NCBI GenBank assembly: GCA_021647685.1
Contig: JAKIUH010000001.1
Coordinates: forward strand, 1 to 52,156
From: Bacteroidales bacterium
GTDB lineage: Bacteria > Bacteroidota > Bacteroidia > Bacteroidales > NBLH01
Length of the DNA stretch: 52,156 nucleotides
Reading direction: 5' to 3'
In this document: one piece after another, positions 1 through 45,290 of the stretch
Numbering within the stretch: position 1 is the first letter of the stretch
Layout: each line of letters begins with the position of its first letter
Position numbers and translations under genes: made by a program
The notes under the pieces: model-generated
What the model was told of the DNA's origin: nothing
Database searches by the model: none
Seen by the model: the letters and a program-made list of their open reading frames with translations, nothing else

Positions 1-430
1 TGTCTGCTATTTTTTGAATTTTTTCGTTGTCGCAAGGGTTTCCGTAAACGTGAACAGGCAAAATTGCTGTTGTTTGCGGAGTGATAAGTGCTTCTATTTT
101 ATCGGGATTAAGATTTCCGTCTTCTTGACAAATATCGCAAAAAACAGGTTTTATTCCGTTCCAATGCAAAGAGTGTGTTGTTGCCACAAAACTGTATGGC
201 GTTGTAATTACTTCGCCTGTAATTCGGAGTGCCTGTAAGCCGACGATAAGTGCAAGTGTTCCGTTTGAAAAAAGCGAAATATATTCAACGCCAAGAAATT
301 CTGCGAGTTTTTGCTCTAATTCTTGATGAAATTTCCCGTTATTTGTCAGATGTTTGCTTTCCCAAAGTTCTTTTAACTTTTCAGTGAAGTCATCAAAATT
401 TGGAAGTGTCGGTTGGGTTACGTATATCAT
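1..430 (-). CDS. DegT/DnrJ/EryC1/StrS-family PLP-dependent sugar aminotransferase, N-terminal ~143 codons (gene runs off the left window edge)
   Basis: Missing from the ORF track because there is no stop inside the window. Hand translation of the minus strand from the ATG at 430-428 gives MIYVTQPTLPNFDDFTEKLKELWESKHLTNNGKFHQELEQKLAEFLGVEYISLFSNGTLALIVGLQALRITGEVITTPYSFVATTHSLHWNGIKPVFCDI..., a typical N-terminus for this family. The frame stays open to position 1. Confidence 0.8.
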   Translation of the reverse strand, partial: MIYVTQPTLPNFDDFTEKLKELWESKHLTNNGKFHQELEQKLAEFLGVEYISLFSNGTLALIVGLQALRITGEVITTPYSFVATTHSLHWNGIKPVFCDICQEDGNLNPDKIEALITPQTTAILPVHVYGNPCDNEKIQKIAD

Positions 431-435
431 TTGTT

Positions 436-1210
436 TCAAAAAATTTGATTTATATATTCTTTAAATAACAAAATTTGCTTTATATCAGACGGATTAAACA
501 GAAACGGTTGAACATCTTTACTTATTTCGGTTAGATTAAGTTTATTTATTTCTTGTAATACTCTGTTTTTTAAAGCAGTTTCATTATTTATTTTCAATTT
601 TTTGTTGTAAATAATCAAAATTCGGACGTGTTGATTTCATTAAAAAAATAATGTCGAAAAAATCTCGTCCTTTTTTTCGTTTTCGGTTAATAAGAGCATA
701 AAATTTTTGTGCCAACAAAATATCTTTCGGCGTTGTGTTTATCGAAGTAAATACATCAAATTTATTTAAAATTAATTTTTCAGGTTTGTATGTGAAATAT
801 TGTGGTTCGGTATCTAATTGAATTAATATTTTTTCTTCCTTGTGACCTGACAGCCCTTCGTTAAAAAGCAAGTTCGGAAATCTGACATAACAATGAAATG
901 CTCCTGCAAACACATTTTTGATGTCAATTTCGTATCCTTGTTTTGACAGTTGTTTTTCAATAATTACAGAAATGTCTTTAAAATCAGTTTCAGATAAGTC
1001 TAAATTATCAAAGTCTAAATCTTCTGAAAAGCGAGAGTTATTATGAACTATTCGCAAACAAGTCCCGCCAAGAAAACAAAGTTTATCTGCATATTCACTT
1101 TCAAAAATTATTTCAAGAATTTTATATTGCAGATATTCACGCAACATAAAATTTTTAAAAATGTGCAAATTTTCGGGATAATATTTTTTTATTTCATTCA
1201 GACTAATCAT
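436..1210 (-). pseudogene. abiEii: AbiEii/AbiGii-family nucleotidyltransferase toxin (DUF1814), split into two frames (584-1210 and 436-618)
   Basis: The 208-aa ORF (..CFLGGTCLRIVHNNSRFSEDLDFD.., RKRKKGRDFFDIIFL) looks like the AbiEii NTase core. The 60-aa ORF (..LTEISKDVQPFLFNPSDIKQILLFKEYI) looks like the family C-terminus in a different frame. The two frames meet at a 6-nt homopolymer (plus-strand T6, 598-603). The start overlaps the abiEi stop by 8 nt. Confidence 0.7.
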
Positions 1211-1817
1211 ACAGAAATTGATTTATTATTTTTACTTTTTTCAACAATATCTTTGAATTATACAAGGTTGCATAATCTGATAATTTTTGCATATTTAATT
1301 CTTTCAGTAATAATTCTTTGTTTAATCGCAAAGATATTATATCTTCAAAAGTTTTTAATGAATGCCGAAAATATAATAAATCTAACAATGCTTTTTCAAT
1401 TTCAGCAATTTTAAAGGTGTAATTTTCTTTTTGCACAAATTTATAAGCAAAAAAACAATTTGTTTTTATGTTTCTGTATGTATATAAATATTGACTATTT
1501 TTAAACTCTTTTGTTTTTAACGTTGTTACAGAATTTATTGAAAAAACTGCTTCCGGAATTACGCCGTAATAATATAATGCCGTTTCTAAACTTACGTAAG
1601 ACGGTTGGTAAATTTTATTTGCAATATAAAAAAGTCTTGTTTCGTCAATAATAGTATCTGAAAAACAATACCAAGAATTTCTAATTTTATGCAAGTATCC
1701 TTTTTTTTGCCAAGTCAGCAAATTCATTTTATTAAAATTCGGGTATAATTTATCTATTTCTTTTACAGAAAATACTATATACTTGTTAAACTGTTGTTTA
1801 AAGTTTAAAAATTGCAT
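1203..1817 (-). CDS. abiEi: AbiEi-family antitoxin / transcriptional regulator (type IV TA)
   Basis: 204-aa ORF. Its N-terminal part (..LLTWQKKGYLHKIRNSWYCF..) has a winged-helix-like AbiEi_4 pattern. It lies directly upstream of the NTase toxin gene and overlaps it, the canonical abiE operon layout. Confidence 0.7.
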   Translation of the reverse strand: MQFLNFKQQFNKYIVFSVKEIDKLYPNFNKMNLLTWQKKGYLHKIRNSWYCFSDTIIDETRLFYIANKIYQPSYVSLETALYYYGVIPEAVFSINSVTTLKTKEFKNSQYLYTYRNIKTNCFFAYKFVQKENYTFKIAEIEKALLDLLYFRHSLKTFEDIISLRLNKELLLKELNMQKLSDYATLYNSKILLKKVKIINQFLYD

Positions 1818-1836
1818 TTTTGTTTCTATTTATATG

Positions 1837-1844
1837 CAAATTTA
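1837..1844 (-). promoter_or_regulatory. Candidate Bacteroidota -7 promoter box (TAAATTTG on minus strand) for abiEi-abiEii
   Basis: Matches the TAnnTTTG consensus about 20 nt upstream of the abiEi ATG. Confidence 0.35.
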
Positions 1845-1904
1845 TATATTTTCAGAAATAAAACAAAAGGTTTAATATTTTTGTGAGCATTATTTATTTT
1901 AAAA

Positions 1905-1985
1905 ATGTGATTGTGTTTTTAAAATTCTTTTAATTTGTATGAATTTGTTAAAATTTTGTAAAGTTGGTTGGGTTATGTATATTGG
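1905..1985 (-). repeat. Decayed copy C of the aminotransferase 5' end / start-codon junction
   Basis: Hand alignment to 352-430 is roughly 70% identical, with a strong core (ttggttgggttatgtatat vs tcggttgggttacgtatat and aaaattcttttaat vs aaagttcttttaac). No start codon or intact reading frame remains. Confidence 0.6.
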
Positions 1986-2052
1986 TTTGTTCATATTTTT
2001 ATCTGATTTTTTCATAATAAAACAACAAATGTGCTGTTTAAATTTTTTATTT

Positions 2053-2298
2053 TAGGGTTTGCTGAAAAATGCTAAATATATTGTAATTCAACACTTTATA
2101 TTTGTATTTTTGTGATAAAGTGCAAGGTTTTTGAATGAAACATCTTGAAACCCATGTACTTATTTTGATAAAACTACTAAATTTTTGCCGCTCAGCTGCA
2201 CATCTCTTTTGTATTTTGTTCAATTTGAAGTATTTATATACATCTACATCTCACAAAATCCAAAATAGACGCACATCTGAGCTTTTCAGCAAGCCCTA
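2053..2298. repeat. Inverted-repeat-bounded 246-bp segment (candidate invertible promoter or MITE)
   Basis: Left arm tagggtttgctgaaaa (2053-2068). The right arm's reverse complement is tagggcttgctgaaaa (2283-2298), matching 15/16. A weaker match extends about 12 nt inward. Two overlapping TAnnTTTG boxes (TATATTTG 2097-2104, TATTTTTG 2105-2112) lie inside, on the plus strand. Confidence 0.55.
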
Positions 2299-2300
2299 TT

Positions 2301-3500
2301 TTACAGATTTTGTTTTTGAAGAAAATTTATTAAACTCAGATGTTTTATTCCGTTTTTATTATCAAATTGAACTTGGTCAAAACTAATAACATATTTATTG
2401 TAATTGTCGTTTATTTTTTCCAAATTTCCAAATTCTCTTTCAACAACTTTATTGTCTGTCAGCAAATAAGTTACTTGTATATAAATTTTATTATTATTTT
2501 TTTCTGCTATAAAATCTATTTCCAGGTTATTTATTTTTCCGATACTTACAGCATAGTCAATTGAAATTAAATGCGAATATACTACATTTTCCAGTATTTT
2601 ATTCATGTCTTGCGGCTTAAAACCTACAAGTGCATTCCGAATGCCTACGTCTGTGAAGTAAAATTTTTCGCCTATTTCCAAAAAACGTTTTCCTTGTAAA
2701 TCGTATCGTCGTATTTTATTTATAAAAAAAGCATTATTAATATAATTAAGATAATTAAGAACAACGGAATTTGAAATTTTAAGGTTCTGAGATTTAAGGA
2801 AGTCGGCAATTTTTTTTGCAGAAACGATACTTCCTGTATTATCTGCAAGAAATAACACAAGACGTTCGAGGAAATCAACATTTTTTAAATTGTATCTTGC
2901 AACTACATCTTTCAAAAGTATTGTTTGATAAATATTTTGCAGATATGTAAAAACAACTTCGTCATCGTTTAAGTCAAGATTTTTCAAATAAGGCATTCCG
3001 CCGAATTTAATATATAAATTAAGCGTTTTTTGATTTACAGATAGTTTGTGAAATTTACAAAATTCAGTAAAATTTAAAGGATTAATTTTAAACTGCACGT
3101 ATCTTCCCGAAAGTAACGTCGCAAGTTCTCCTGACAACAGCGATGAGTTACTGCCGGTTATATAAATATTGTAATTTTTAGAAAAGAAATGTCGAACTGC
3201 ATGCTCAAAGCCGTTAATTTCTTGTATTTCATCAATAAATAAGATATTTCCGGCAGATTTTGATTTTTTTTCTATATAGTTTACTAAATCATCGGCTGTG
3301 TTAATTGTTGAAAATTCAAACAATTCTAAATTAATATAAATAATATTAATGTCTGGTGTATGTTTTAAATAATCAGCTATCAACAGTTTAAGAAAAAAAC
3401 TTTTCCCAACCCTGCGTTGTCCTGTAATAACTTTAATAATTTCGTTATTTGCAAATTTAGAAATCTTGTTTAAATATTTATTGCGTTGTATTATTTTCAT
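2301..3500 (-). CDS. AAA-family ATPase with C-terminal DUF4143-type domain
   Basis: 399-aa ORF. Walker A is GQRRVGKS and Walker B-like is ILFIDEIQ. The C-terminal part (..LEIDFIAEKNNNKIYIQVTY..) resembles the restriction-endonuclease-like DUF4143 module common in Bacteroidota. Confidence 0.8.
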   Translation of the reverse strand: MKIIQRNKYLNKISKFANNEIIKVITGQRRVGKSFFLKLLIADYLKHTPDINIIYINLELFEFSTINTADDLVNYIEKKSKSAGNILFIDEIQEINGFEHAVRHFFSKNYNIYITGSNSSLLSGELATLLSGRYVQFKINPLNFTEFCKFHKLSVNQKTLNLYIKFGGMPYLKNLDLNDDEVVFTYLQNIYQTILLKDVVARYNLKNVDFLERLVLFLADNTGSIVSAKKIADFLKSQNLKISNSVVLNYLNYINNAFFINKIRRYDLQGKRFLEIGEKFYFTDVGIRNALVGFKPQDMNKILENVVYSHLISIDYAVSIGKINNLEIDFIAEKNNNKIYIQVTYLLTDNKVVEREFGNLEKINDNYNKYVISFDQVQFDNKNGIKHLSLINFLQKQNL

Positions 3501-3543
3501 ATATCAGCAAGTTACAAGGATATTAATAATTATTGCAATAATA

Positions 3544-3618
3544 CAAAAAAGATTTAAGTTTACTTACAGTTTTGCTAAAATAATCAAAAAGATTTAAGTT
3601 TACTTGCAATGTTTTGCT
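3544..3618. repeat. Two tandem direct repeats (~33 nt, period ~41 nt) upstream of the ATPase gene
   Basis: caaaaaagatttaagtttacttacagttttgct (3544-3576) and caaaaagatttaagtttacttgcaatgttttgct (3585-3618). They share a 20-nt identical core, aaaaagatttaagtttactt, and an identical ttttgct tail. Confidence 0.7.
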
Positions 3619-3629
3619 CCGGTTTCGGT

Positions 3630-3732
3630 GGAATTTACCCTTAATTGTTAAGTGTTTGCTTTCCCAGAGTTCTTTTAACTTTTCAGTGAAACTATTAAAA
3701 TCGGGGAGATTTGGTTGGGTTACGTATATTGT
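3630..3732 (-). pseudogene. Displaced copy B of the aminotransferase 5' end (first ~35 codons), start codon lost
   Basis: Ungapped hand alignment to 328-430 matches roughly four-fifths of ~103 positions. It translates as TIYVTQPNLPDFNSFTEKLKELWESKHLTIKGKFH, against MIYVTQPTLPNFDDFTEKLKELWESKHLTNNGKFH in the live gene. ACA replaces ATG, and the copy abuts the wzt stop codon (3733-3735). Confidence 0.75.
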
Positions 3733-4980
3733 TTATTTAAAATTTAAGATTTCAAATTTAGGATAATATATACCTTCATAATTTGCTGCAATTATTGCAA
3801 ATCGATCATCTTGCTCAATATCAAAAAGAGCAAAATGGTTTAGAAACATCATTTCAGGAACAATTCTGTCTTCAAATATTCCAACAGAAATAAAATATCT
3901 GCCGGGTATAAGTTTAAAATTATCAAGTTTGAATGTTATTTCATGTTTTCCTTTTGTGCCTTTTATAGAGTGCTTTTTATGGACAGAACTAATCACAAGA
4001 ACCCTTATATTTTGTTCATTATAAAAATGTAATGTAAAATCAATTTCACCAAGGTTTTGTTTTGTTTCAAATTTTAAGTTAAAAAAGATTTCTTCGAATG
4101 GGGTAAATACATTTTCTTTATATTTATTTTTTATATTAAAGCTGATAATTTTAATTTTATTATTTTCAATAGCTTCTTCTTTTTGATTTTCTGTAATTGT
4201 ATTATAAGTTTGAATACAACTTTCAACAGCTCCCTCAAAACTAATCATTCCCGATTTTAAAAGAATTCCTTTTTTACATAAATTTCTAATGCTTGTCATA
4301 TTATAACTAACAAAAAGCACAGTCCTCCCTCCTTGTGAAGAAACATCTTGCATTTTGCCGATTGCTTTTTTCTGAAATTCGGCATCGCCTACGGCAAGGA
4401 CTTCGTCAACTACTAAAATGTCGGGCTCTAAGTGTGCTGCTACTGCAAATGCAAGACGAACATACATTCCGCTGCTGTATCGCTTAACAGGCGTATCAAG
4501 GTATTTTGCCACTCCTGCAAAATCTACAATCTCATCAAGTTTCTTTTTTATTTCCCATTTTCGCATTCCGAGTATTGCTCCGTTAAGGAAAATATTTTCT
4601 CGTCCTGTAAGTTCGGGATGGAAACCTGTTCCTACTTCAAGTAAACTTGCAATTCTGCCTTTTACTTTTATTTGCCCGATACTGGGACCCGTAACCCGCG
4701 AAAGTAGTTTCAGTAAAGTGGATTTTCCTGCACCATTTTTACCGATAATGCCCAGCACTTCACCTTGTTTTACTTCCAAATTAATATCGCGCAAAGCCCA
4801 AACGTATTCACCTTCAACGGTATTTAATGCATTTGTAGAACCTATTTTCAGGGCAGGGTCTTCTTTGCCCCGCACACGATACCACCAACGTTGCAAATCG
4901 CCGCGCAGCGTTTGGCTGCCAACCGTACCCAAACGGTATTGCTTACCTATATTTTCAAGCTTGATTACTGTTTCAGACAC
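3733..4980 (-). CDS. wzt: Polysaccharide/O-antigen ABC exporter ATP-binding protein (Wzt/TagH type) with C-terminal extension
   Basis: GTG start. Walker A GKNGAGKST, signature YSSGM, Walker B ILVVDE. A TagH/Wzt-style N-terminus (LRGDLQRWWYRVRG..) is followed by about 160 extra C-terminal residues, consistent with a Wzt glycan-binding domain. Confidence 0.85.
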   Translation of the reverse strand: MSETVIKLENIGKQYRLGTVGSQTLRGDLQRWWYRVRGKEDPALKIGSTNALNTVEGEYVWALRDINLEVKQGEVLGIIGKNGAGKSTLLKLLSRVTGPSIGQIKVKGRIASLLEVGTGFHPELTGRENIFLNGAILGMRKWEIKKKLDEIVDFAGVAKYLDTPVKRYSSGMYVRLAFAVAAHLEPDILVVDEVLAVGDAEFQKKAIGKMQDVSSQGGRTVLFVSYNMTSIRNLCKKGILLKSGMISFEGAVESCIQTYNTITENQKEEAIENNKIKIISFNIKNKYKENVFTPFEEIFFNLKFETKQNLGEIDFTLHFYNEQNIRVLVISSVHKKHSIKGTKGKHEITFKLDNFKLIPGRYFISVGIFEDRIVPEMMFLNHFALFDIEQDDRFAIIAANYEGIYYPKFEILNFK

Positions 4981-5123
4981 CTCTTTTTGTTATTGCATTA
5001 CAAACGTAATAATTTAAGATTTATTTAAAGGACTTTATAAAAAGTATTCATTTTTTTTTATACAAAAATACAACATTTATCAGTTTAAGGATATCTTAAA
5101 ATAAAAATCCACAAAAGAATTAA

Positions 5124-5131
5124 TATATTTG
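5124..5131 (+). promoter_or_regulatory. Candidate -7 box TATATTTG for wzm
   Basis: TAnnTTTG match 19 nt upstream of the wzm ATG. A second match, TAATTTTG, lies at 5138-5145. Confidence 0.3.
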
Positions 5132-5149
5132 TCACAATAATTTTGATTT

Positions 5150-6019
5150 ATGAACAAAGAAGAAAAATTAGGAAACAGCACCGAAAACTGGTCAATGATT
5201 ATTCGTCCCAAAAGGCACTTGTTCGATGTTAATTTACAAGAAATTTGGTCTTATCGCGATTTAATCAAACTATTTGTTCGCAGAGATTTTGTAGCACGCT
5301 ATAAGCAAACAATTTTAGGTCCTTTGTGGTTTCTCATTCAGCCATTGTTTACAACGGTTATGTACACGATTGTTTTTGGAAATATAGCCAAAATATCTAC
5401 AGATGGATTACCCCAAATTTTGTTTTATATGTCGGGAATTGTTGGCTGGACTTATTTTTCTGCATGTCTTAATTCTACCTCCAATACTTTTGTTGCCAAT
5501 GCAGGAATTTTCGGGAAAGTATATTTCCCGCGCTTAACATTACCTATTTCAATAGTAATATCAAACCTTATTCAATTTACCATACAATTTTTTCTTCTTT
5601 TGGCATTTATGCTGTATTATCGAATAATCGGTGCTAACTTTCATACCAATATATATGTTCTTCTTTTACCGCTTTTAATTGTACTGATGGCCGGTTTAGG
5701 TTTGGGATTTGGCATTATGATATCCTCATTAACAACAAAATACAGAGATTTGACAAATCTGGTAAGTTTTGGAGTTCAGTTATGGATGTATGCTACGCCC
5801 ATAATCTATCCGCTATCCGAAATACCTGAAAAATACCGGCTGTTTGTATTGGCTAATCCGCTTACACCGATTATTGAAACTTTTCGTTTTGCACTACTCG
5901 GTGCAGGAACTGTTAATTGGATGCATCTGACTTATAGTTTTATATTTACGATTATCGTTCTGGCAATAGGTATTGTGTTATTCAATAAAGTAGAACAAAC
6001 TTTTATGGATACAGTTTAA
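5150..6019 (+). CDS. wzm: ABC-2 type polysaccharide export permease (Wzm/TagG type)
   Basis: 289 aa with 6 hydrophobic segments. The N-terminal motif (..LIKLFVRRDFVARYKQTILGPLWFLIQPL..) is characteristic of ABC-2 permeases. Confidence 0.8.
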   Translation: MNKEEKLGNSTENWSMIIRPKRHLFDVNLQEIWSYRDLIKLFVRRDFVARYKQTILGPLWFLIQPLFTTVMYTIVFGNIAKISTDGLPQILFYMSGIVGWTYFSACLNSTSNTFVANAGIFGKVYFPRLTLPISIVISNLIQFTIQFFLLLAFMLYYRIIGANFHTNIYVLLLPLLIVLMAGLGLGFGIMISSLTTKYRDLTNLVSFGVQLWMYATPIIYPLSEIPEKYRLFVLANPLTPIIETFRFALLGAGTVNWMHLTYSFIFTIIVLAIGIVLFNKVEQTFMDTV

Positions 6020-8791: not shown

Positions 8792-10651
8792 ATGAGAACA
8801 ACAAAGAGTTTTTTAATGTTTATTTTTATTTTTGTTTTTGCGGCAAATATTTTTGCACAAAAAGAAAAATCAACAAAGTCAGATCCAAACGTTCCAATTT
8901 TTGAAATTAAAAACGATTTAGGTCAAACAGTTTTTGCAGTCTATCCGGGCGGAGTAAAAATTTTTGTAGATAGTAAATTAAAAGCAGCCGGCGGCGGTTT
9001 TACCGTTGGAAGTTTAAGTACCGGTAAAGCGGCAGGCGGTGATATTTTATCTGTTAGTCCCGGAAATGTTAATATCTATATTGACACTTCATCAACTTTA
9101 AAAGCAGCCGGTGGCGGTTTTACTGTTGGAAGTTTAAGCACTGGTAAAAAAGCATTGGGCATTGCAGAGAACTATCTTACTGTGAGTCCTGATAGTACCA
9201 GAGTATATATTGATGAAAAAAGTACAGCTGGCTTTGCTGTTGGTAGGATTGGTACAACAGTTGGGATTCAAAACTTTATGCACTTAAAAAAAGATAATTA
9301 TTTCATCGGGCAAAAAAGTGGCGAAAAAACAACAGGTTTGTACAATCTTTTTTTAGGCTATGAAAGTGGATTTTCTAATACAAATGGAACAAGTAATACT
9401 TTTTTAGGATTTCAGACCGGTTACTCAAATACTTCCGGTAGCCGAAATATTTTTATAGGAGATAATTGCGGCTATTCAAATACATCAGGTAACTTTAATA
9501 CATTTGTAGGAACCAATGCCGGAGTTAAGAATACCACGGGTAGTTTCAGTACTTTTTTAGGTTATCAAGCAGGACGAGAAGTGCAAACCATTGGTTATAA
9601 CACTTGTATCGGATACAATAGTGGTGCAGGAGGTGCAAGCGGTAATAACCGTGCATTTTTAGGATACAGTTCAGGAGCAAGCAGCACAGGTGATGATAAT
9701 ACCTATTTAGGAGCCGAAGCCGGGTATTATAGTGCTGCCGGTGCAGGCAATGTTTATATTGGTACAGGTGCCGGTAGAGTAGGAACAGGAGATAATAACA
9801 TATTTATTGGAAAGTTTTCAGGATATAGTGCTCCCGGCTCAAATAATATTTTAATAGGACCCGGTGCAGGGTGGAGTCTGCAAAGGTCTAATATATTAAT
9901 TATTGATAATTCATCTGATACAATTAATCCTCTTATTATAGGCGATTTTGTTAACCAAAAATTAAGGTTTGGTGCTGATGTTAGTGTTGCTCAAAATTTA
10001 GGAATAAATAGGGAAGCATATACAAATGCATCATTAGGTGTTGATGGGGCCAATAATGGTTGGGGTGTATATTCTACAAAAGGAACTTCAACCGGCTATA
10101 ACTTTTTTGAAGGTAATCTTGCTATTGGAACAACAAGCAATGTGAGTTCTTATGAGCTTTCTGTTGAAGGAGATGGATATTTTTCTGGTAATCTCAATGT
10201 TACGGGTAATGTTAATGCTGCAAACTTTCCTGCACCATCGGATATTCGCTTCAAAAAAAACATCATAACAATCAATGGTGCTTTAAATAAAATACTTAGT
10301 ATCAGAGGAGTTTATTACGATTGGAAAGTTGATGAATTCAAAAACAGAGGCTTTACAAAAGACAAGCAAATTGGAGTTATTGCCCAAGAAGTAGAAAAAG
10401 TTTTACCGGAATTGGTTAAAACTGATGATGACGGATATAAAGCAGTTACTTATGATAAACTTACCGCTGTATTAATCGAAGCCGTAAAAGAACAACAAAA
10501 GCAAATTGAAGCCTTAAAATTAGAAAATCAGAAACTTACTCAAAAAACATCTGAGATTGATGAATTAAGAGCGGAACTTACCGAGCTCAAAAAATTAGTT
10601 CGTGACATTGCCGGACAGAATTTACAGGATAAAACAGAATCGGCTCAATAA
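8792..10651 (+). CDS. Secreted fiber-like protein: conserved N-module, beta-roll type repeats, peptidase-S74 intramolecular chaperone (tail-fiber) domain, C-terminal coiled coil
   Basis: Signal peptide present. The LKAAGGGFTVGSLSTGK motif is duplicated. There are many ~14-residue repeats (G-x-x-[AS]-G-x-x-N-T-x-G-x-x-N-x-F-[ILV]). The C-terminal region SDIRFKKNI...GVYYDWK...IGVIAQEVEKVLPELV...YDKLTAVLIEAVKEQQKQIE matches the endosialidase-chaperone type domain. Confidence 0.75.
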   Translation: MRTTKSFLMFIFIFVFAANIFAQKEKSTKSDPNVPIFEIKNDLGQTVFAVYPGGVKIFVDSKLKAAGGGFTVGSLSTGKAAGGDILSVSPGNVNIYIDTSSTLKAAGGGFTVGSLSTGKKALGIAENYLTVSPDSTRVYIDEKSTAGFAVGRIGTTVGIQNFMHLKKDNYFIGQKSGEKTTGLYNLFLGYESGFSNTNGTSNTFLGFQTGYSNTSGSRNIFIGDNCGYSNTSGNFNTFVGTNAGVKNTTGSFSTFLGYQAGREVQTIGYNTCIGYNSGAGGASGNNRAFLGYSSGASSTGDDNTYLGAEAGYYSAAGAGNVYIGTGAGRVGTGDNNIFIGKFSGYSAPGSNNILIGPGAGWSLQRSNILIIDNSSDTINPLIIGDFVNQKLRFGADVSVAQNLGINREAYTNASLGVDGANNGWGVYSTKGTSTGYNFFEGNLAIGTTSNVSSYELSVEGDGYFSGNLNVTGNVNAANFPAPSDIRFKKNIITINGALNKILSIRGVYYDWKVDEFKNRGFTKDKQIGVIAQEVEKVLPELVKTDDDGYKAVTYDKLTAVLIEAVKEQQKQIEALKLENQKLTQKTSEIDELRAELTELKKLVRDIAGQNLQDKTESAQ

Positions 10652-10678
10652 ATTTTATAATAACAAACTTTTATTATC

Positions 10679-11752
10679 ATGATAAAGCGATTATTCAAAT
10701 ACAGTTTATTATTGCAGGGCATACTTTTTTTATGTCCTACAATAAATGCTCAGCAAGTTATTGTTTCGGATGCTGCCGAATTTAATCTTGCCGTAGCAGG
10801 AACAGTGGATATTAATGCAGATTTGATTAATAATTCACCTAATGCGCTGCTCTTAGGAACATTTGCCTTTTCAGGAAATACCGAACATGAAATTGGTGGT
10901 ACGGCACCTATTGAATTTAACAATCTTTCAATTAATAATTCGGCAGGAATTCGTTTGTCCACCGATATTATGGTAACAGGAAATCTTGATTTAATTGCCG
11001 GTACCGTTAATTTATTAAACAGTAATGTTACTATTGGAAGTAATGCAAGCCTTTCCGGTAGTTTTTCGCCAAATGTAATGCTTATTGCTGATGGTTCAGG
11101 ACAACTTAAAAGAGAAATTGCCGGCTCGGGAACCTACTTATTTCCTGTTGGCGATACTTCTAATCTTACAGATTACTCTCCGGTTAGCCTAACCTTTAGC
11201 TCAGGAACATTTACCAATGCAGTAGTGGGGGTGAATTTAAAAAATGAAAAACATCCGGAAAACACAAGTGTTAATGATTATTTAAATAAATATTGGACCC
11301 TTAGCGGAAGCGGACTCTCCGATTTTTCTTGTACCGCAACTTTTACTTATAGTAATGAAGACATAGTTGGCTCAGAATCAAATCTTTGGGGAGCAAAATG
11401 GGACGGTAACCAATGGACTGTCCTCAATCAGGCTGCTATGAATACATTTAGCGGTACTATTAATAGTTTTTCAGACTTTACGGCTGGTGAAAAAAAAGTC
11501 CTATCTGTTGAAGATGAACTTTTGCCGGATGATGTAAAAATTACAGTTGAAGGAAACAATATTATTATACGCTCAGATGCTGTTAAATTAGAAAGGGCAG
11601 AGATTTATAATTTATCAGGACAATTAATTTATAGTAAAGATTTATCACAGAATACGGTCAATGAATTAAATTTCAATGCCCGCCCTAATTATTATATTGT
11701 TAAAGTATATTCCGACAAACAAACAATTAGTAAAAAAATCTTTAAAAACTAA
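10679..11752 (+). CDS. Secreted hypothetical protein with T9SS C-terminal sorting domain
   Basis: Signal peptide ..CPTINAQ. The C-terminal ~80 aa (..AEIYNLSGQLIYSKDL...YYIVKVYSDKQTISKKIFKN) fits the Por_Secre_tail pattern. Confidence 0.7.
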   Translation: MIKRLFKYSLLLQGILFLCPTINAQQVIVSDAAEFNLAVAGTVDINADLINNSPNALLLGTFAFSGNTEHEIGGTAPIEFNNLSINNSAGIRLSTDIMVTGNLDLIAGTVNLLNSNVTIGSNASLSGSFSPNVMLIADGSGQLKREIAGSGTYLFPVGDTSNLTDYSPVSLTFSSGTFTNAVVGVNLKNEKHPENTSVNDYLNKYWTLSGSGLSDFSCTATFTYSNEDIVGSESNLWGAKWDGNQWTVLNQAAMNTFSGTINSFSDFTAGEKKVLSVEDELLPDDVKITVEGNNIIIRSDAVKLERAEIYNLSGQLIYSKDLSQNTVNELNFNARPNYYIVKVYSDKQTISKKIFKN

Positions 11753-11756
11753 TGTC

Positions 11757-13589
11757 ATGAAAGCAACACTACACTTTATTTTTGTGCTTCTTTTTTTAAG
11801 TAGCACATTCATTGCTTATTCGCAGAATAAGGAAGACGCAGAAAGTTTAAAATCCGATCCCAACACGCCAATTTTTGAAATTAAGAATGATGCGGGACAA
11901 ACCGTATTTGCAGTTTATCCGGGAGGTGTAAAAATTTTTATTGATAGCAAATTAAAAGCTGCCGGCGGAGGTTTTACCGTGGGTAGTCTCAGCACCGGAA
12001 AAGCAGTAGGTGGTGATATTTTTTCGGTTAGTCCGGGAAATGTAAATGTTTATATTGATAATACTTTAAAAGCTGCAGGTGGAGGATTTACTGTTGGCTC
12101 ACTCAGCACCGGAAAAGCTGCCGGCGATACCATTAATTTTTTGGAAGTAACTCCGGATAGCACCAGAGTTTACATAAATGAGAATAGTAATGCAGGATTT
12201 GCGGTAGGTAAGCTGGGTGCTACCATCGGCAGGCAAAATTTTATGTATCTAAGAAAAGATAATTATTTTATTGGACATAATATTGGAAGTAAAACTACTG
12301 GTATTCGTAATGTTTTAATTGGATATGAAGCCGGTTCTAATAATACAATATGCTCTGATAATATTTTCTTAGGCTACCAAACCGGATATTTTAATACATA
12401 TGGCGAAAACAATATTTTTATTGGAACTAGAGCAGGGTACAATAATTCATCACAAGCAGAGAGCAACAACTTTGAAGCAGACAATAATGTTTTTATCGGT
12501 AATTTAAGTGGATATAATAATGTATTGGGTTTCCAAAATGTTGCTATTGGGGCTGAAAGTGGATATAATAACAATACCAATTATAATGTATATATTGGAT
12601 ACCAAGCCGGTAGAGCAAATGTTTCAGGAATTCAACAGGTTTTTATCGGAGAAACAGCCGGTCTTAAAACAACAGGCAGAATGAATACTTTTATAGGAAG
12701 TAGTGCTGGAAAAAATACTGTTTCAGGCACTGATAATTGCTTTATGGGAACATTAACAGGATGGGCTAGCAGAGAAAACAGCAGTCAAAATACTTTAATT
12801 GGCTCTCAATCAGATTGGAGAAATGGTACCACAGGAAATTACAATACTTTTTTAGGCTTTAAAGCAGGTGCGACTGACAACTGGAGTTCTAATGAAAATA
12901 TTGGTCAATACAATGTTTTATTAGGATATAAAGCAGGTGCCCGCAATGGAAATGACCTTGGAAATAATAATATTTTAATAGGTTATAATGCGGGGTATAA
13001 TATAACAGGAAGTAATAAATTATACATAAACTCAGGTAGTGGTATCCCACTAATCTATGGCGAGTTTGATAATAAACGTATAGCCATTAATACAACAAAT
13101 ACAAACAGTTACACTTTTTATGTAAACGGCTCTGCCGGAGGAACAGGTAATTGGAATGCCAGTAGTGATCGAAGATTAAAAACAAATATTACGTCTATTC
13201 CCGACCCTTTAAATAAAGTAAAAGCTCTTAATGGTGTTAATTTTTATTGGAAAGATAAAAAAACAAGAGGAAATAAAGCTCAAATTGGATTTATTGCTCA
13301 GGATGTAGAAAAAATACTTCCCGAAGTTGTAAACAAAAACGGAAAATACTACTCCATGCAATATGCGCCTATTACAGCACTACTTGTTGAAGCCATAAAA
13401 GAACAGCAAAAACAAATTGAAAAGCTTACAAATAAACTGGCTGAACTTGAAAACCAAAATAAAGACTTAAAAGTCCAAGTTTCTGACATACAAGATTTAA
13501 AATCAGAGGTAGAGGTTTTAAAAAATATGCTCAAACAAATACTGCCGGAAAACGAACAATTAAAGAACAAAGCAGAAACTGCGAGGTAG
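11757..13589 (+). CDS. Paralog of the 8792-10651 fiber-like protein (S74 chaperone domain, coiled coil)
   Basis: I place the start at ATG 11757 (MKATLHFIFVLLFLSSTFIAYSQ signal peptide). The tracked 11676 start overlaps the upstream gene. The N-module is nearly identical at protein level to the paralog. C-terminal region: SDRRLKTNI...GVNFYWK...IGFIAQDVEKILPEVV...LLVEAIKEQQKQIE. Confidence 0.75.
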   Translation: MKATLHFIFVLLFLSSTFIAYSQNKEDAESLKSDPNTPIFEIKNDAGQTVFAVYPGGVKIFIDSKLKAAGGGFTVGSLSTGKAVGGDIFSVSPGNVNVYIDNTLKAAGGGFTVGSLSTGKAAGDTINFLEVTPDSTRVYINENSNAGFAVGKLGATIGRQNFMYLRKDNYFIGHNIGSKTTGIRNVLIGYEAGSNNTICSDNIFLGYQTGYFNTYGENNIFIGTRAGYNNSSQAESNNFEADNNVFIGNLSGYNNVLGFQNVAIGAESGYNNNTNYNVYIGYQAGRANVSGIQQVFIGETAGLKTTGRMNTFIGSSAGKNTVSGTDNCFMGTLTGWASRENSSQNTLIGSQSDWRNGTTGNYNTFLGFKAGATDNWSSNENIGQYNVLLGYKAGARNGNDLGNNNILIGYNAGYNITGSNKLYINSGSGIPLIYGEFDNKRIAINTTNTNSYTFYVNGSAGGTGNWNASSDRRLKTNITSIPDPLNKVKALNGVNFYWKDKKTRGNKAQIGFIAQDVEKILPEVVNKNGKYYSMQYAPITALLVEAIKEQQKQIEKLTNKLAELENQNKDLKVQVSDIQDLKSEVEVLKNMLKQILPENEQLKNKAETAR

Positions 13590-13756
13590 TGTCTGTCCAT
13601 AAAGTTAAAAGATTTATAAAGTTCGAGTTCAAGACCTAAAAAAATGCAAGCCACAGTATACTAATGTGCTCGAAGATTTGCATCTTGTGCAACAACGCAG
13701 AAATCGGACTGTAGAGACAAACCCTAAGTAGATATTGTACTCAATCAGTAATTTTA

Positions 13757-13791
13757 AAGTCGTTAAGTTTTTTTAAACTTAGCGACTTTTT
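13757..13791 (+). terminator. Rho-independent terminator
   Basis: 14-bp stem (aagtcgttaagttt / aaacttagcgactt, one G-U pair), tttt loop, T-run after. Confidence 0.65.
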
Positions 13792-13952
13792 CCATAAAAA
13801 TAAATGCTTTTCCCAACAATAAATCAGATTGAAATATCAAAAAACACTATTTTTTTATCAAAAAAGGATTATTCTTAAAACTTATTCCATTATCTTTATG
13901 GATTAAAATAAATAGCATACTTTTTGTAGCTATTATATAACAAAAAATTATA

Positions 13953-16900
13953 ATGATGAACAAATTTTATCTGTTCTTTACACTATTTTTATTTCCGCTT
14001 TTTATTAAATCACAAATTAATAAAGACGGCTTACCCTTAGTTCAGATATATACAACTGACCAATATGAGGCACATGGCGAAAACTGGGCAATTGTTAGAG
14101 ATAATAAAGGCATTATGTATTTTGCCAATAATTACGGATTGTTACAATATAACGGTACTAATTGGAAACTATTTGAAAATCCATACAGTCCGTATATACG
14201 TTCATTAGAAGTTGATGATAAAGGAAGAGTATATTATGGTGCAGCAAATGATTTTGGAATGATTTTACCTGACTCTATAGGAAACTTAAAATATTTTTCA
14301 ATTTCAAAAGCATCAGCAGTAGATACACTTGGCTTCAATAATGTTTGGAATGTAAATATTGTTGGAAATTATATTTACTTTCAGGCATACGAAAATATTT
14401 TTAAATATAAACTACCCATTAATATTAAATCGCCGGACGAGATTAAAAAAAACATGAAAATATTTACGCCTAAAAGTTATTTTCATTGGTCTTTTAAGGT
14501 AAATAATAATTTTTATGTTCGCGAAGCTGATAAAGGCTTGTATATCGATAAAAATGACAGCTTAGTTTTTATCAAAGGAAGTGAGCTTTTTGCAAATCAA
14601 AAAATTTACGTAATGCTTCCTTATAAAGACGATGCATTACTTATAGTAACCCGCGAAACCGGTATTTATATATATGAGCCGGGAAATAAAGAAACACCTT
14701 TTAACTTAATGGATTGGGATGTTAATGAAACATTGATTAACAGCTATATATACGGAGGAGTTTCCATAGCAAAAAATTTATATGCAATTTATACATTAGC
14801 AAATGGTATCATTATTTTTAATGACCAAGGAGATATTATCAATCATTATACTCAAAATAATTGTTTACCACACGCTACAATACTTTCAATAAATTATGAT
14901 GATAAGGAAGGTTTATTGTGGTTTACAAGTAATAAAGAAATTGGAAATATTAATCTTGCCAGCCCCATCAGACAATGGTTACCATCAACAGGACTACAAG
15001 GAATTGTTTATGATGTAATTCGTTTTAATAATTACTTCTATGCAGCAACTAATAATGGTATTTATTTTTATGATGTAAATAATGAAGGCTACGCAGCCTT
15101 TAAAAAAATACAGGGTCTAGATATTCGTGTTCGGGATTTAGAAATATTTCACGGTGAAAGTTCCGATAAACTGTTAGCGGCAGCAGAAGGTGCTGTTTTT
15201 GAAATTACCGGCGAACAAGCAAAAATGATTGATAATTCAGGAATTGTTCAAAAATTAAAACAATCTCAAATAAATCCCAATTTGGTTTATATAGGCTATC
15301 TTAATGGATTTGCTTATGCTGAATATGATACTGAAAACTGGACACTTAAAGAAAAAAACCCTTATATAAAAAATTCGATAATTGATATCTACGAAGATAA
15401 TCAATCTGAAATATATTTGGGTAGTGAAGTTGGGGGTATTATTAAATTAAAAAACCCATTAGATTCTATAATTATTATTGACTCAGCCAGAGGTTTACCC
15501 ATAGAAGGTTCACAATTTAAAATTTTTAATGTAAATAATGATTTAATTGTTGCCGCCTATAAAGGTTTGTTTAAAATTAATAAAGAAACAAATTATGCCG
15601 AGCCTTACAAAAAATTAGGTACTGAATTTACAATGGGAAATTATGGCATATTTAATATTAGTGAAGACAACGAAGCTATCTGGTTAGGAGCATATTCTAA
15701 TGATTTAAGCCAAAGTAAATGGCAAGGAATTATTAAATTAAAAAAAAACGATTCAGAGAAGTTTATAAAAGAGCAAAATCCATATAATATTCTTCCTCCA
15801 AAAGTTCCGTATGTATTATTTACAGAAAAAAATTATTTATGGGTAGCTAATGCAAAAGGTTTTTTTAAACTCAATAAGAAAAAAGAAAAAAATTACTCAT
15901 TAAAATTTTATACCGTTATAAGTAAAGTTACCACCGGCGCAAACGATTCTTTGTTGTTTGCAGGTAATTATACCGGAGATAGTGTTTTTTACATACAATC
16001 AGAACAAGAAGTTCCTGTTTTAGCATTTAAACATAATCAAATGACCTTTGAATATGCTGCCGGATTTTATGAACAAGAAGAAAAAACTCAATACAGTTAC
16101 CGTTTACTTGGATTTAACAATCAATGGTCAAAATGGACCACCGAGCATAAGTTTACCTACACAAATATACATGAAGGCGATTACACATTTCAAGTTAGAG
16201 CAAAAAATATTTACCAAACAGAAAGCGAAATTGCAAATTATAAGTTTACAATTTTACCTCCATGGTACAGAACCCCATGGGCTTATATATCATATGCAGT
16301 AAGTGCATTTTTACTTATATGGCTAATTGTAAAATACAATACCAAACGTTTAAAAGAAGAAAAAATACGTTTGGAACTTCTGGTTGCTGAACGTACACGT
16401 GAAATTAAAGCACAACATGATAAAATTGCAGAATTGCATAAAAATATTATGGACAGCATTTTTTATGCACGTCGCATTCAAGAAGCACTTATGCCACCCA
16501 AAGAATTTTTGCACGAATTATTGCCCGAGCATTTTGTGTTATTCAAGCCGCGCGATATTGTAAGCGGTGATTTTTATTGGGCAACAAAACACGATGGTAA
16601 AGCCATATTAGTAGCAGCAGACTGTACAGGACATGGTGTTCCCGGTGCTTTTATGAGTATGTTGGGCATATCTTTTTTAAATGAAATTGTAAATAAAATC
16701 GAGGATCTGGAAGCTCATAAAATATCAAATGAATTACGTGCAAACGTAAAAAAATCATTACGCCAAACGGGTAAAGAAAATGAAGCTAAAGATGGAATGG
16801 ATATAGCACTTTGTATTATTGACTATGAAAATATGCAAATGGAATATTCAGGTGCTTTTAATTCCTTATACCTAATTCGCAAGGGAGAGCTTATAAAATA

Positions 16901-45216: not shown

Positions 45217-45290
<74 letters not shown>

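Follow-up and report, generated by a model that had tools for sequence, protein, structure and literature searches.

Why should the start of a single gene occur three times in succession within one polysaccharide operon? The question is raised by a 52,156-nt contig of a Bacteroidales metagenome-assembled genome (MAG; contig JAKIUH010000001.1, locus tags L3J74_), the whole of which was analysed and is referred to here as the window. On its minus strand, to which all coordinates of the array refer, the wzt gene of a Wzm/Wzt-type glycan exporter is separated from a DegT-type sugar aminotransferase gene by two accessory cassettes, one encoding an AAA_14/DUF4143 ATPase and the other an AbiE toxin-antitoxin pair. 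Copies of the DegT 5′ end (A, B and C) bracket the cassettes, giving the order wzt, B, ATPase, C, AbiEi-AbiEii, A (Table 1). We consider, with a probability of about 0.6, that the copies are recombination scars: resident gene starts would have been displaced serially through homology-anchored and illegitimate recombination, and the array would afterwards have been exchanged as a whole by homologous recombination.

The three copies lie on one strand and each covers about -10 to +80/+140 of DegT. A (327-440) and B (3629-3742) are 81% identical over 114 nt without a gap, and allowing one indel extends the match to about 3612. Their local alignment scored 70, whereas none of 300 dinucleotide shuffles exceeded 16, and the equivalent pair in a related contig (locus L001, contig JAJRUH010000018.1) gave a BLASTN E value of 4e-27. 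The identity is uneven: the central 38 nt reach 92%, the part 5′ of them 76% and the part 3′ of them 57%, and the longest exact runs are 17 and 23 nt. C has a 2-nt deletion and matches A and B less well, at 68-75% identity. Its best local score of 33-36 is far above the values obtained with shuffled sequences (mean 14.5, standard deviation 1.6, maximum 21; z = 12-14), therefore AT-richness does not explain C. B starts across the TAA of wzt (3733-3735), has ACA where A has ATG, and keeps its frame open for about 70 codons, while C reads MNKPIYITQPTLQNF... from its own ATG (1994) for 31 codons.

The initial annotation, made from the letters of the sequence, had described three same-strand copies of the aminotransferase 5′ end in the order given above, with A as the live start of the gene and B as an ungapped, about four-fifths identical copy abutting the wzt stop codon and carrying ACA in place of ATG. 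This description was borne out, for A by the Pfam match of the encoded protein (Table 1), and the shuffles ruled out AT-richness as the source of the similarity, for A/B as well as for C. The frame of B, which had been said to end soon, does not. The inserts had also been described as AT-richer than their flanks. The GC content over the inserts is indeed low (0.19-0.30), but the low-GC tract spans about 450 to about 4300 and runs into wzt; as it also covers the C-terminal domain of Wzt, the boundaries of the inserts are not marked by composition.

That the copies are artefacts, either of chance similarity in AT-rich DNA or of a chimeric or mis-assembled MAG contig, is barely credible. It is true that the window contig ends 430 nt into DegT, that the related contig ends at DegT, and that one of the compared loci (L056) has a suspicious duplicated wzt. 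The shuffle z-scores of 12-36 argue against chance, however, and the copies, being 18-32% apart, cannot be collapsed repeats. Moreover, the 4.7-kb arrangement was assembled in two contigs with different flanks and a single-nucleotide difference, and the same architecture was found in unrelated assemblies from NCBI, ENA, JGI and Logan.

The origin of B and C was approached through 80 fetched DegT relatives. The closest alleles came from an Acetofilamentum MAG (L002) and a Chlorobiota MAG (L003), and A, B and C group with both. Over the segment from -12 to +80 the identities were 82% for A-B, 78% for A-L002, 78% for C-L003, 68% for C-A and 69% for C-B. An MNKP N-terminal extension is common to C, L002 and L003, and A is without it. 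Between A and B, over about 35 codons, eight codons differ by synonymous changes only and six by non-synonymous changes; for the live alleles A and L002 the corresponding numbers are 8 and 4. The allele-like codon differences between A and B, together with the affinity of C to L003, suggest therefore that the stubs diverged mostly as functional alleles elsewhere. Sequence comparison thus favours the interpretation of B and C as displaced functional alleles, foreign or earlier, rather than in-situ duplicates. The proposal that B is a diverged allele and not a product of random decay gains support from these figures, and the same can be said of C. Because it is AT-enriched and frame-broken, C is taken to be the older scar. 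Tandem DegT paralogues were also considered as a source of the copies and were rejected: all three fall within the narrow allele group of A, L002 and L003.

An in-situ origin would be expected if a transposition-like mechanism had created a long target-site duplication, the non-coding copy of which then slowly diverged. Such an event would leave direct repeats of the target on both sides of the insert, as seen here, and a ratio of non-synonymous to synonymous substitution rates (dN/dS) of about 0.5 would be expected, about 0.3 being observed over the approximately 35 codons. We regard this course of events as very improbable. C is closer to an allele from a MAG of another phylum than to A or B, the 18% divergence between A and B is about equal to that between A and L002 or L003, and the open frame of B is protein-like. 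The repeats of the compared loci are 68-91% identical, their lengths vary widely from locus to locus and are often zero, and no transposase was found in the scans described below.

Information on the layout before the insertions came from L079, in which wzt (1411-2655) directly abuts DegT (from 2657), and from L060, which is similar. These are distant lineages, with DegT proteins 62-65% identical, and they support the ancestral wzt-stop/start-aminotransferase layout that had been proposed initially. An exact look-up of the window Wzt yielded no match, nor did a search with its C-terminal 179 amino acids, so that close wzt relatives for an empty-site comparison were not retrievable.

L001 has the same arrangement as the window, and its DegT gene is complete (13071-14168, 365 aa). 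Positions 1-4678 of the window differ from L001 by one mismatch (at 4305), and positions 4679-4980 by 97 (32%). The identity breaks between 4678 and 4679, just past the Walker A region of wzt. Upstream of 4980 the two contigs are unrelated in gene order and orientation, and wzm is about 72% identical. This pattern points to an exchange of the array as one block, such as a recent homologous recombination would leave, through a crossover in the nucleotide-binding domain of wzt, which is conserved. L001 carries a Schlafen-type gene between wzm and wzt; no wzt stub was found beside this cassette in the wzm-wzt interval.

What are the inserted units? The ATPase contains the Pfam domains AAA_14 (E = 3.6e-32) and DUF4143 (E = 1.8e-17), and matches the PADLOC candidate defence family PDC-S01 from end to end (PDLC04787, E = 1e-144, residues 1-397). 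Its function in defence is a predicted one. DNA homology between the ATPase unit and L084 extends exactly from 3614 of the window, at the margin of stub B, to 2304, at the ATPase stop codon; past this codon, only 16-25 nt precede the next feature in L084, L088 and L096. The approximately 114 nt upstream of the gene in the window contain two copies of the motif GTAAGTAAACTTA. Upstream of PDC-S01 ATPase genes, a palindromic motif resembling TGTAAGTAAACTTACA occurs two or three times, at intervals of about 40 nt (window 3505-3614; L084 5887-6000; L088 2005-2105; L098 2121-2241; L100 194-279). The motif is kept across loci despite differing neighbours, and is probably the operator of the cassette's own promoter.

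The second cassette has the composition of an AbiE type IV toxin-antitoxin system, with the gene of an AbiEi (COG5340-type) antitoxin followed by that of an AbiEii nucleotidyltransferase toxin. AbiEii is not intact. Compared with the 257-aa homologue in L096, it has a frameshift near codon 205 (596-603, an A-rich run), which splits it into 208 aa and a 60-aa tail. The sequence is identical in L001, and the frameshift could reflect a real pseudogene or a homopolymer error. Homology of the AbiE unit to L096, L092 and L094 begins at 1862-1866 and ends at 434-440 in every context (within 4 nt), and thus takes in about 49 nt ahead of the ATG and both genes down to the stop codon.

Upstream conservation of the cassettes ends at the edge of the promoter/operator region (a TAnnTTTG-type box, the repeated GTAAGTAAACTTA), so the coincident ends can be explained by function combined with loss of unconstrained DNA. 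A defined mobile end was considered for the cassettes and discarded: conservation stops at the promoter/operator edge and at the stop codon, for which functional constraint suffices. The host genes next to the two units are unrelated (DegT, a GT2-type gene, an unannotated 385-aa gene and GT4), the AbiE unit adjoining four unrelated genes and the ATPase unit at least four.

A metagenome scan with the ATPase found only four loci, and viral-contig scans with the ATPase and with AbiEi found none. In a plasmid collection only homologues of less than 50% identity to the ATPase (220 records) and less than 40% identity to AbiEi (2 records) were detected, and no vehicle was identified. The AAA_14/DUF4143 ATPase homologues at 39-49% identity were on 220 plasmids, 172 of them from Acinetobacter; this ATPase family is frequently located on mobile DNA.

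Is the arrangement peculiar to this locus? Context look-ups placed most AbiE and ATPase homologues within polysaccharide operons, where they share the orientation of the operon and frequently accompany each other. In L096, AbiE and an ATPase are enclosed by three 106-nt copies (74-81% identical) of the 5′ end of the 385-aa gene; the architecture is that of the window, with reversed cassette order and another host gene. Copy 1 in L096 is a mosaic, its left 52 nt being identical to copy 2 and its right 33 nt to copy 3. The same locus contains a 49-nt stub of the start of a PglD-like gene before a Schlafen/AlbA_2 gene, and the 5′ end of an AbiE cassette itself also survives there, as a remnant of 66 nt. 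In L084 and L087, AbiE, DUF433/DUF5615 and ATPase cassettes are interspersed with four stubs of a GT2-type gene start (PKLSIITVNLN...), and the last of these stubs is fused to a GT10 gene. Two WecE-like stubs were found around Schlafen and AbiE cassettes in L101, the second being fused in frame to a truncated ATPase: at 4955-5282 the 21-codon WecE-like stub joins the last third of the ATPase at the microhomology CACAAT[T/C]ATATTTCA, which is similar in both parents. Pairs of another composition are also flanked by repeats. The DUF6922-AbiEii pair of L001 lies between copies of a 62-nt repeat (89%) of the cysC promoter and start, and a DUF6922-AbiEii-type pair in L013 between copies of a 99-nt repeat (78%) of the 3′ end of the upstream gene, with mostly synonymous differences.

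In a survey of 15 junctions between cassette and host gene, significant stubs of the present downstream gene were detected at five (z = 6-35) and none at nine; the remaining junction, in L084, has stubs of a gene that is no longer present. The share of junctions with stubs is about 40%. Stub lengths across the loci range from 8 to about 390 nt. Microhomology was clear at one junction in L101, and amounts to about 4 nt at the junction between B and the cassette in the window.

The mosaic structure of copy 1 in L096 and the patchy identity of A and B show that the repeats do recombine, and both are what crossovers inside repeats would give. These observations bring up the alternative that cassettes hop in the manner of Campbell integration, guided by the stubs: RecA would loop out a circle between two stubs, and the circle, once transferred, would enter any homologous gene start by a single crossover. 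The stub would then be a functional homing arm, re-entry would re-create the duplication, and the arrays would be a recombinase-free analogue of integrons. Consistent with this, the arrays are made up of discrete cassettes in one orientation and repeatedly draw on the same families. However, repeats that are 74-91% identical, with A/B exact runs of at most 17-23 nt, are poor substrates for RecA, and the presence of the same cassette beside unrelated genes would still require an illegitimate founding event. Stubs are lacking at more than half of the junctions, and neither a circular junction nor an empty site was observed. Hopping of this kind appears rather unlikely. It is equally doubtful that, in the glycan operons of Bacteroidota, the cassettes for defence and toxin-antitoxin functions (AbiE, PDC-S01 ATPase, Schlafen/AlbA_2) constitute a recombinase-free, integron-like, stub-homing system. 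If they did, each cassette would be accompanied by a decoy of the start of the gene that follows it, this stub would serve both as homing arm and as replacement start in insertions carried out by host recombination, and arrays would grow, shrink and hop between surface-glycan loci; the stubs would then guide homing and not be mere passive scars.

A search for dedicated mobility machinery gave negative results. Pfam scans of the open reading frames of at least 120 aa in the 52-kb window did not reveal any integrase or transposase, in agreement with the initial annotation, and none was present in the Pfam tables for the 5-6 kb around L084, L087, L092, L094, L096 and L001. No attC-like fold was detected in the repeats (DNA fold z-scores between -2.2 and +1.7, no fold common to the copies), and there were no inverted repeats inside the stubs.

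These results bear on the possibility that the cassettes are integrase-less integrative elements (cis-mobilisable, tycheposon satellite or integron-cassette-like), which would use the DegT 5′ end as attB, be served by a recombinase in trans and accumulate by tandem accretion. The tandem array with a repeat at each cassette boundary, the restoration of the gene by the incoming copy, and the A/B exact runs of 17 and 23 nt would all suit such elements. When phage 21 or e14 integrates into icd, the incoming copy likewise restores the target gene, and toxin-antitoxin cassettes are typical of chromosomal integron arrays. Nevertheless, neither the window nor the surroundings of the six related loci contain an integrase or a transposase. 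The AbiE and ATPase cassettes are flanked by unrelated sequence in different loci and share no common core; adjoining unrelated genes as they do, they have no fixed target. The stubs vary between 8 and about 390 nt in length and are absent at 9 of the 15 junctions, they have neither attC-like hairpins nor internal inverted repeats, and the similarity between A and B runs past both sides of any candidate core. The conserved TAnnTTTG-type promoter regions carried by the cassettes, with no integrase found, set them apart from integron cassettes. With no recombinase found in these scans, no common core, variable or absent stubs and no attC-like fold, a dedicated site-specific system is unlikely, and integrase-less elements served in trans are distinctly so. 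Of the two mechanisms suggested initially, homology-driven stacking fits the data, but an att-like site served in trans is disfavoured by the unrelated neighbours and by the stub-less junctions.

Serial displacement by general recombination would account for the locus in the following way. In the ancestral operon the wzt stop codon would have been followed directly by the DegT start. Donor DNA would have consisted of a self-contained cassette, with its own promoter and gene or genes and ending at a stop codon, together with the DegT of the donor lineage. Integration would have been anchored by homologous pairing in DegT or in genes downstream, and the non-homologous end of the cassette would have been joined to the resident DegT illegitimately, or via very short homology, at a point between a few dozen and about 140 nt into the gene. 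Severed in this way, the start of the resident gene would have become a dead stub, with the incoming allele providing a working one. At least two such events, in this lineage or in a donor, with C as the older scar, would result in B-[ATPase]-C-[AbiE]-A. A dedicated recombinase would not be needed. The composite array could then move as a block by homologous recombination in conserved flanking genes. Stub-less junctions are common, and an imprecise process therefore fits. Serial insertion with displaced 5′ ends from foreign alleles, as put forward in the initial annotation, is thus the best reading of the locus; what we infer is in which order the events took place, that the left-hand joins were illegitimate, and by which route the DNA came into the cell.

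Several points weigh against serial displacement. The stubs show a striking preference for the opening 40-140 nt of the gene downstream, which random illegitimate joins do not obviously predict; conjecturally, the bias may be attributed to proximity to the edge of the homologous anchor, to selection against damage to the closely adjoining upstream gene and to instability of long repeats. The dN/dS argument rests on only about 35 codons. The coincident cassette ends could also mark a defined mobile unit, and the sharp break in wzt may have arisen in assembly, as a chimera formed at a conserved k-mer. The window and L001 contigs both end at or in DegT, and the two MAGs may share one study. The searches recovered neither an empty-site nor a single-cassette variant of the locus, and the sole relative, L001, is identical across it; the term insertion hotspot, used in the initial annotation, is therefore unproven in its population sense. 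Finally, serial displacement presupposes that these Bacteroidales take up DNA, which would be by natural transformation or some comparable route.

How does the array compare with known systems? Integrative elements that bring a replacement gene end, such as phage 21 and e14 in icd, tRNA-targeting islands, tycheposon arrays and cis-mobilisable elements, leave the displaced end as a diverged direct repeat, and their tandem accretion gives n+1 repeats. The present locus differs from them in that no integrase was found and there is no fixed target or conserved core, repeat length varies and many insertions are stub-less. Integron arrays and clusters of attC sites lacking integron-integrases (CALINs) are similar in having co-oriented small cassettes, including toxin-antitoxin cassettes, and repeats of about 60-140 nt that resemble each other within an array. 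The repeats described here, however, are coding 5′ ends of host genes and lack an attC fold, each cassette brings its own promoter, and no IntI was found. In T4-type phages, cassettes of accessory genes are flanked by short promoter-containing repeats (promoter early stem-loops, PeSLs), which are thought to mediate shuffling by general recombination; unlike the stubs, PeSLs are dedicated regulatory stem-loops in phage genomes and not host gene starts.

Gene remnants in O-antigen clusters have been interpreted as recombination scars (PMC3715488). As in O-antigen and capsule loci, we see a mosaic polysaccharide locus in which conserved genes serve as crossover points and dead fragments mark replacements (PMC3715488). 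The remnants in those clusters are mostly decayed whole genes or fragments of insertion sequences and H-repeats, whereas here one and the same 5′ end occurs three times and brackets defence cassettes unrelated to glycan synthesis.

A model of serial displacement was proposed for the effector-immunity arrays of the Vibrio cholerae type VI secretion system (T6SS) and for the orphan modules of Rhs and contact-dependent inhibition (CDI) systems (PMC5361080). There too, new modules displace the old end of a gene, which is left behind in a co-oriented stack, each unit retains a short piece homologous to the constant gene, and whole arrays are exchanged by homologous recombination in conserved flanks (PMC5361080). 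The present array is a mirror image of these, as the constant part is the downstream gene and the displaced 5′ stubs lie upstream. The stubs are also functionless, whereas orphan toxin tips and immunity genes stay useful, and the cargo consists of unrelated defence and toxin-antitoxin cassettes in a Bacteroidota glycan export/biosynthesis operon. In our best reading, the array is a mirror-image variant of the known displacement arrays, with recurring defence-type cargo in glycan operons.

The features of the array and of the adjoining exporter genes are listed in Table 1.

Table 1. Features of the stub-bracketed array and neighbouring genes in the window
Feature	Position	Strand	Remarks
DegT/DnrJ/EryC1 sugar aminotransferase, 5′ part	1..430	-	Pfam PF01041, E = 5.5e-40; gene cut by contig end
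Copy A, live DegT 5′ end, -10 to ~+104	327..440	-	similarity to B to ~+120, with one indel
AbiE cassette unit: ~49 nt promoter region, AbiEi and AbiEii	434..1866	-	PADLOC, DNA homology
AbiEi	1817-1203	-	PADLOC E = 7e-58
AbiEii	1210-584 + out-of-frame tail 618-436	-	PADLOC E = 1e-89; Pfam PF08843 E = 2.7e-19
Copy C, decayed DegT 5′ stub; own ATG at 1994, 31-codon open reading frame	1893..1998	-	
Spacer between ATPase stop codon and stub C, ~300 nt	1999..2300	-	no Pfam match for its 58-aa open reading frame
ATPase cassette unit: ~114 nt regulatory region and AAA_14/DUF4143 ATPase gene (3500-2301)	2301..3614	-	
Copy B, stub of diverged DegT allele, ACA for ATG	3612..3742	-	overlaps wzt stop codon
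wzt, O-antigen/glycan ABC-transporter ATPase with Wzt_C domain	3733..4980	-	Pfam ABC_tran (PF00005), Wzt_C (PF14524)
wzm, ABC-2 permease	5150..6019	+	PF01061; divergent from wzt

The assignment of Wzm/Wzt to glycan export follows from the combination of an ABC-2 permease with an ABC ATPase carrying a Wzt_C carbohydrate-binding domain. In the window wzt and wzm diverge over a 170-nt gap, and they are co-directional in L001, L003 and L079. The spacer between the ATPase gene and stub C contains 29-nt inverted repeats (2040-2068 and 2283-2311). It was considered as a miniature inverted-repeat transposable element, and this was rejected when a second copy proved absent from the window and from 100 fetched loci. 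A terminator scan of the minus strand from wzt to DegT gave no hit. Rfam and tRNA scans had a single match, a tRNA-Met at 45217, and thus none close to the array. Elsewhere in the window (8792-13589), two paralogous proteins of about 620-640 aa with Peptidase_S74 (endosialidase chaperone) C-termini have repeated 51-nt units in common. They are tail-fibre-like, adjoin a GH18 gene and lie in a non-prophage context.

Two of the compared loci have features of their own. L094 (1500-6400) has four toxin-antitoxin-type pairs in a row before a GT4 gene, without detectable stubs: an unannotated 100-aa gene with AbiEii, a short AbiEi-like gene with AbiEii, MNT/HepT, and AbiEi/AbiEii. In L056 (6310-11101), from a Lentimicrobiaceae MAG, wzt is duplicated; the first 593 nt of the two copies are 99.8% identical and their C-terminal domains differ. 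The copies are separated by a sulfotransferase-like gene and a 363-nt fragment of a DegT 5′ end (89%). This locus is either a snapshot of one-sided recombination or an assembly artefact caused by mixing of strains.

Surface-glycan loci are phage-receptor loci, and few regions of bacterial genomes recombine as readily. In Bacteroidota and neighbouring phyla, cassettes of the anti-phage and toxin-antitoxin kinds seem to have settled repeatedly within the glycan operons and to move with whole arrays by crossover in conserved genes such as wzt, which would link receptor variation and intracellular defence on one exchangeable block. The gene-start stubs provide a sequence signature by which acquisitions may be dated and ordered without mobile-element genes. 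If the stubs guide insertion, they would represent a recombinase-independent route to defence arrays; if they do not, the locus would still be a clear example of a mirror-image displacement array.

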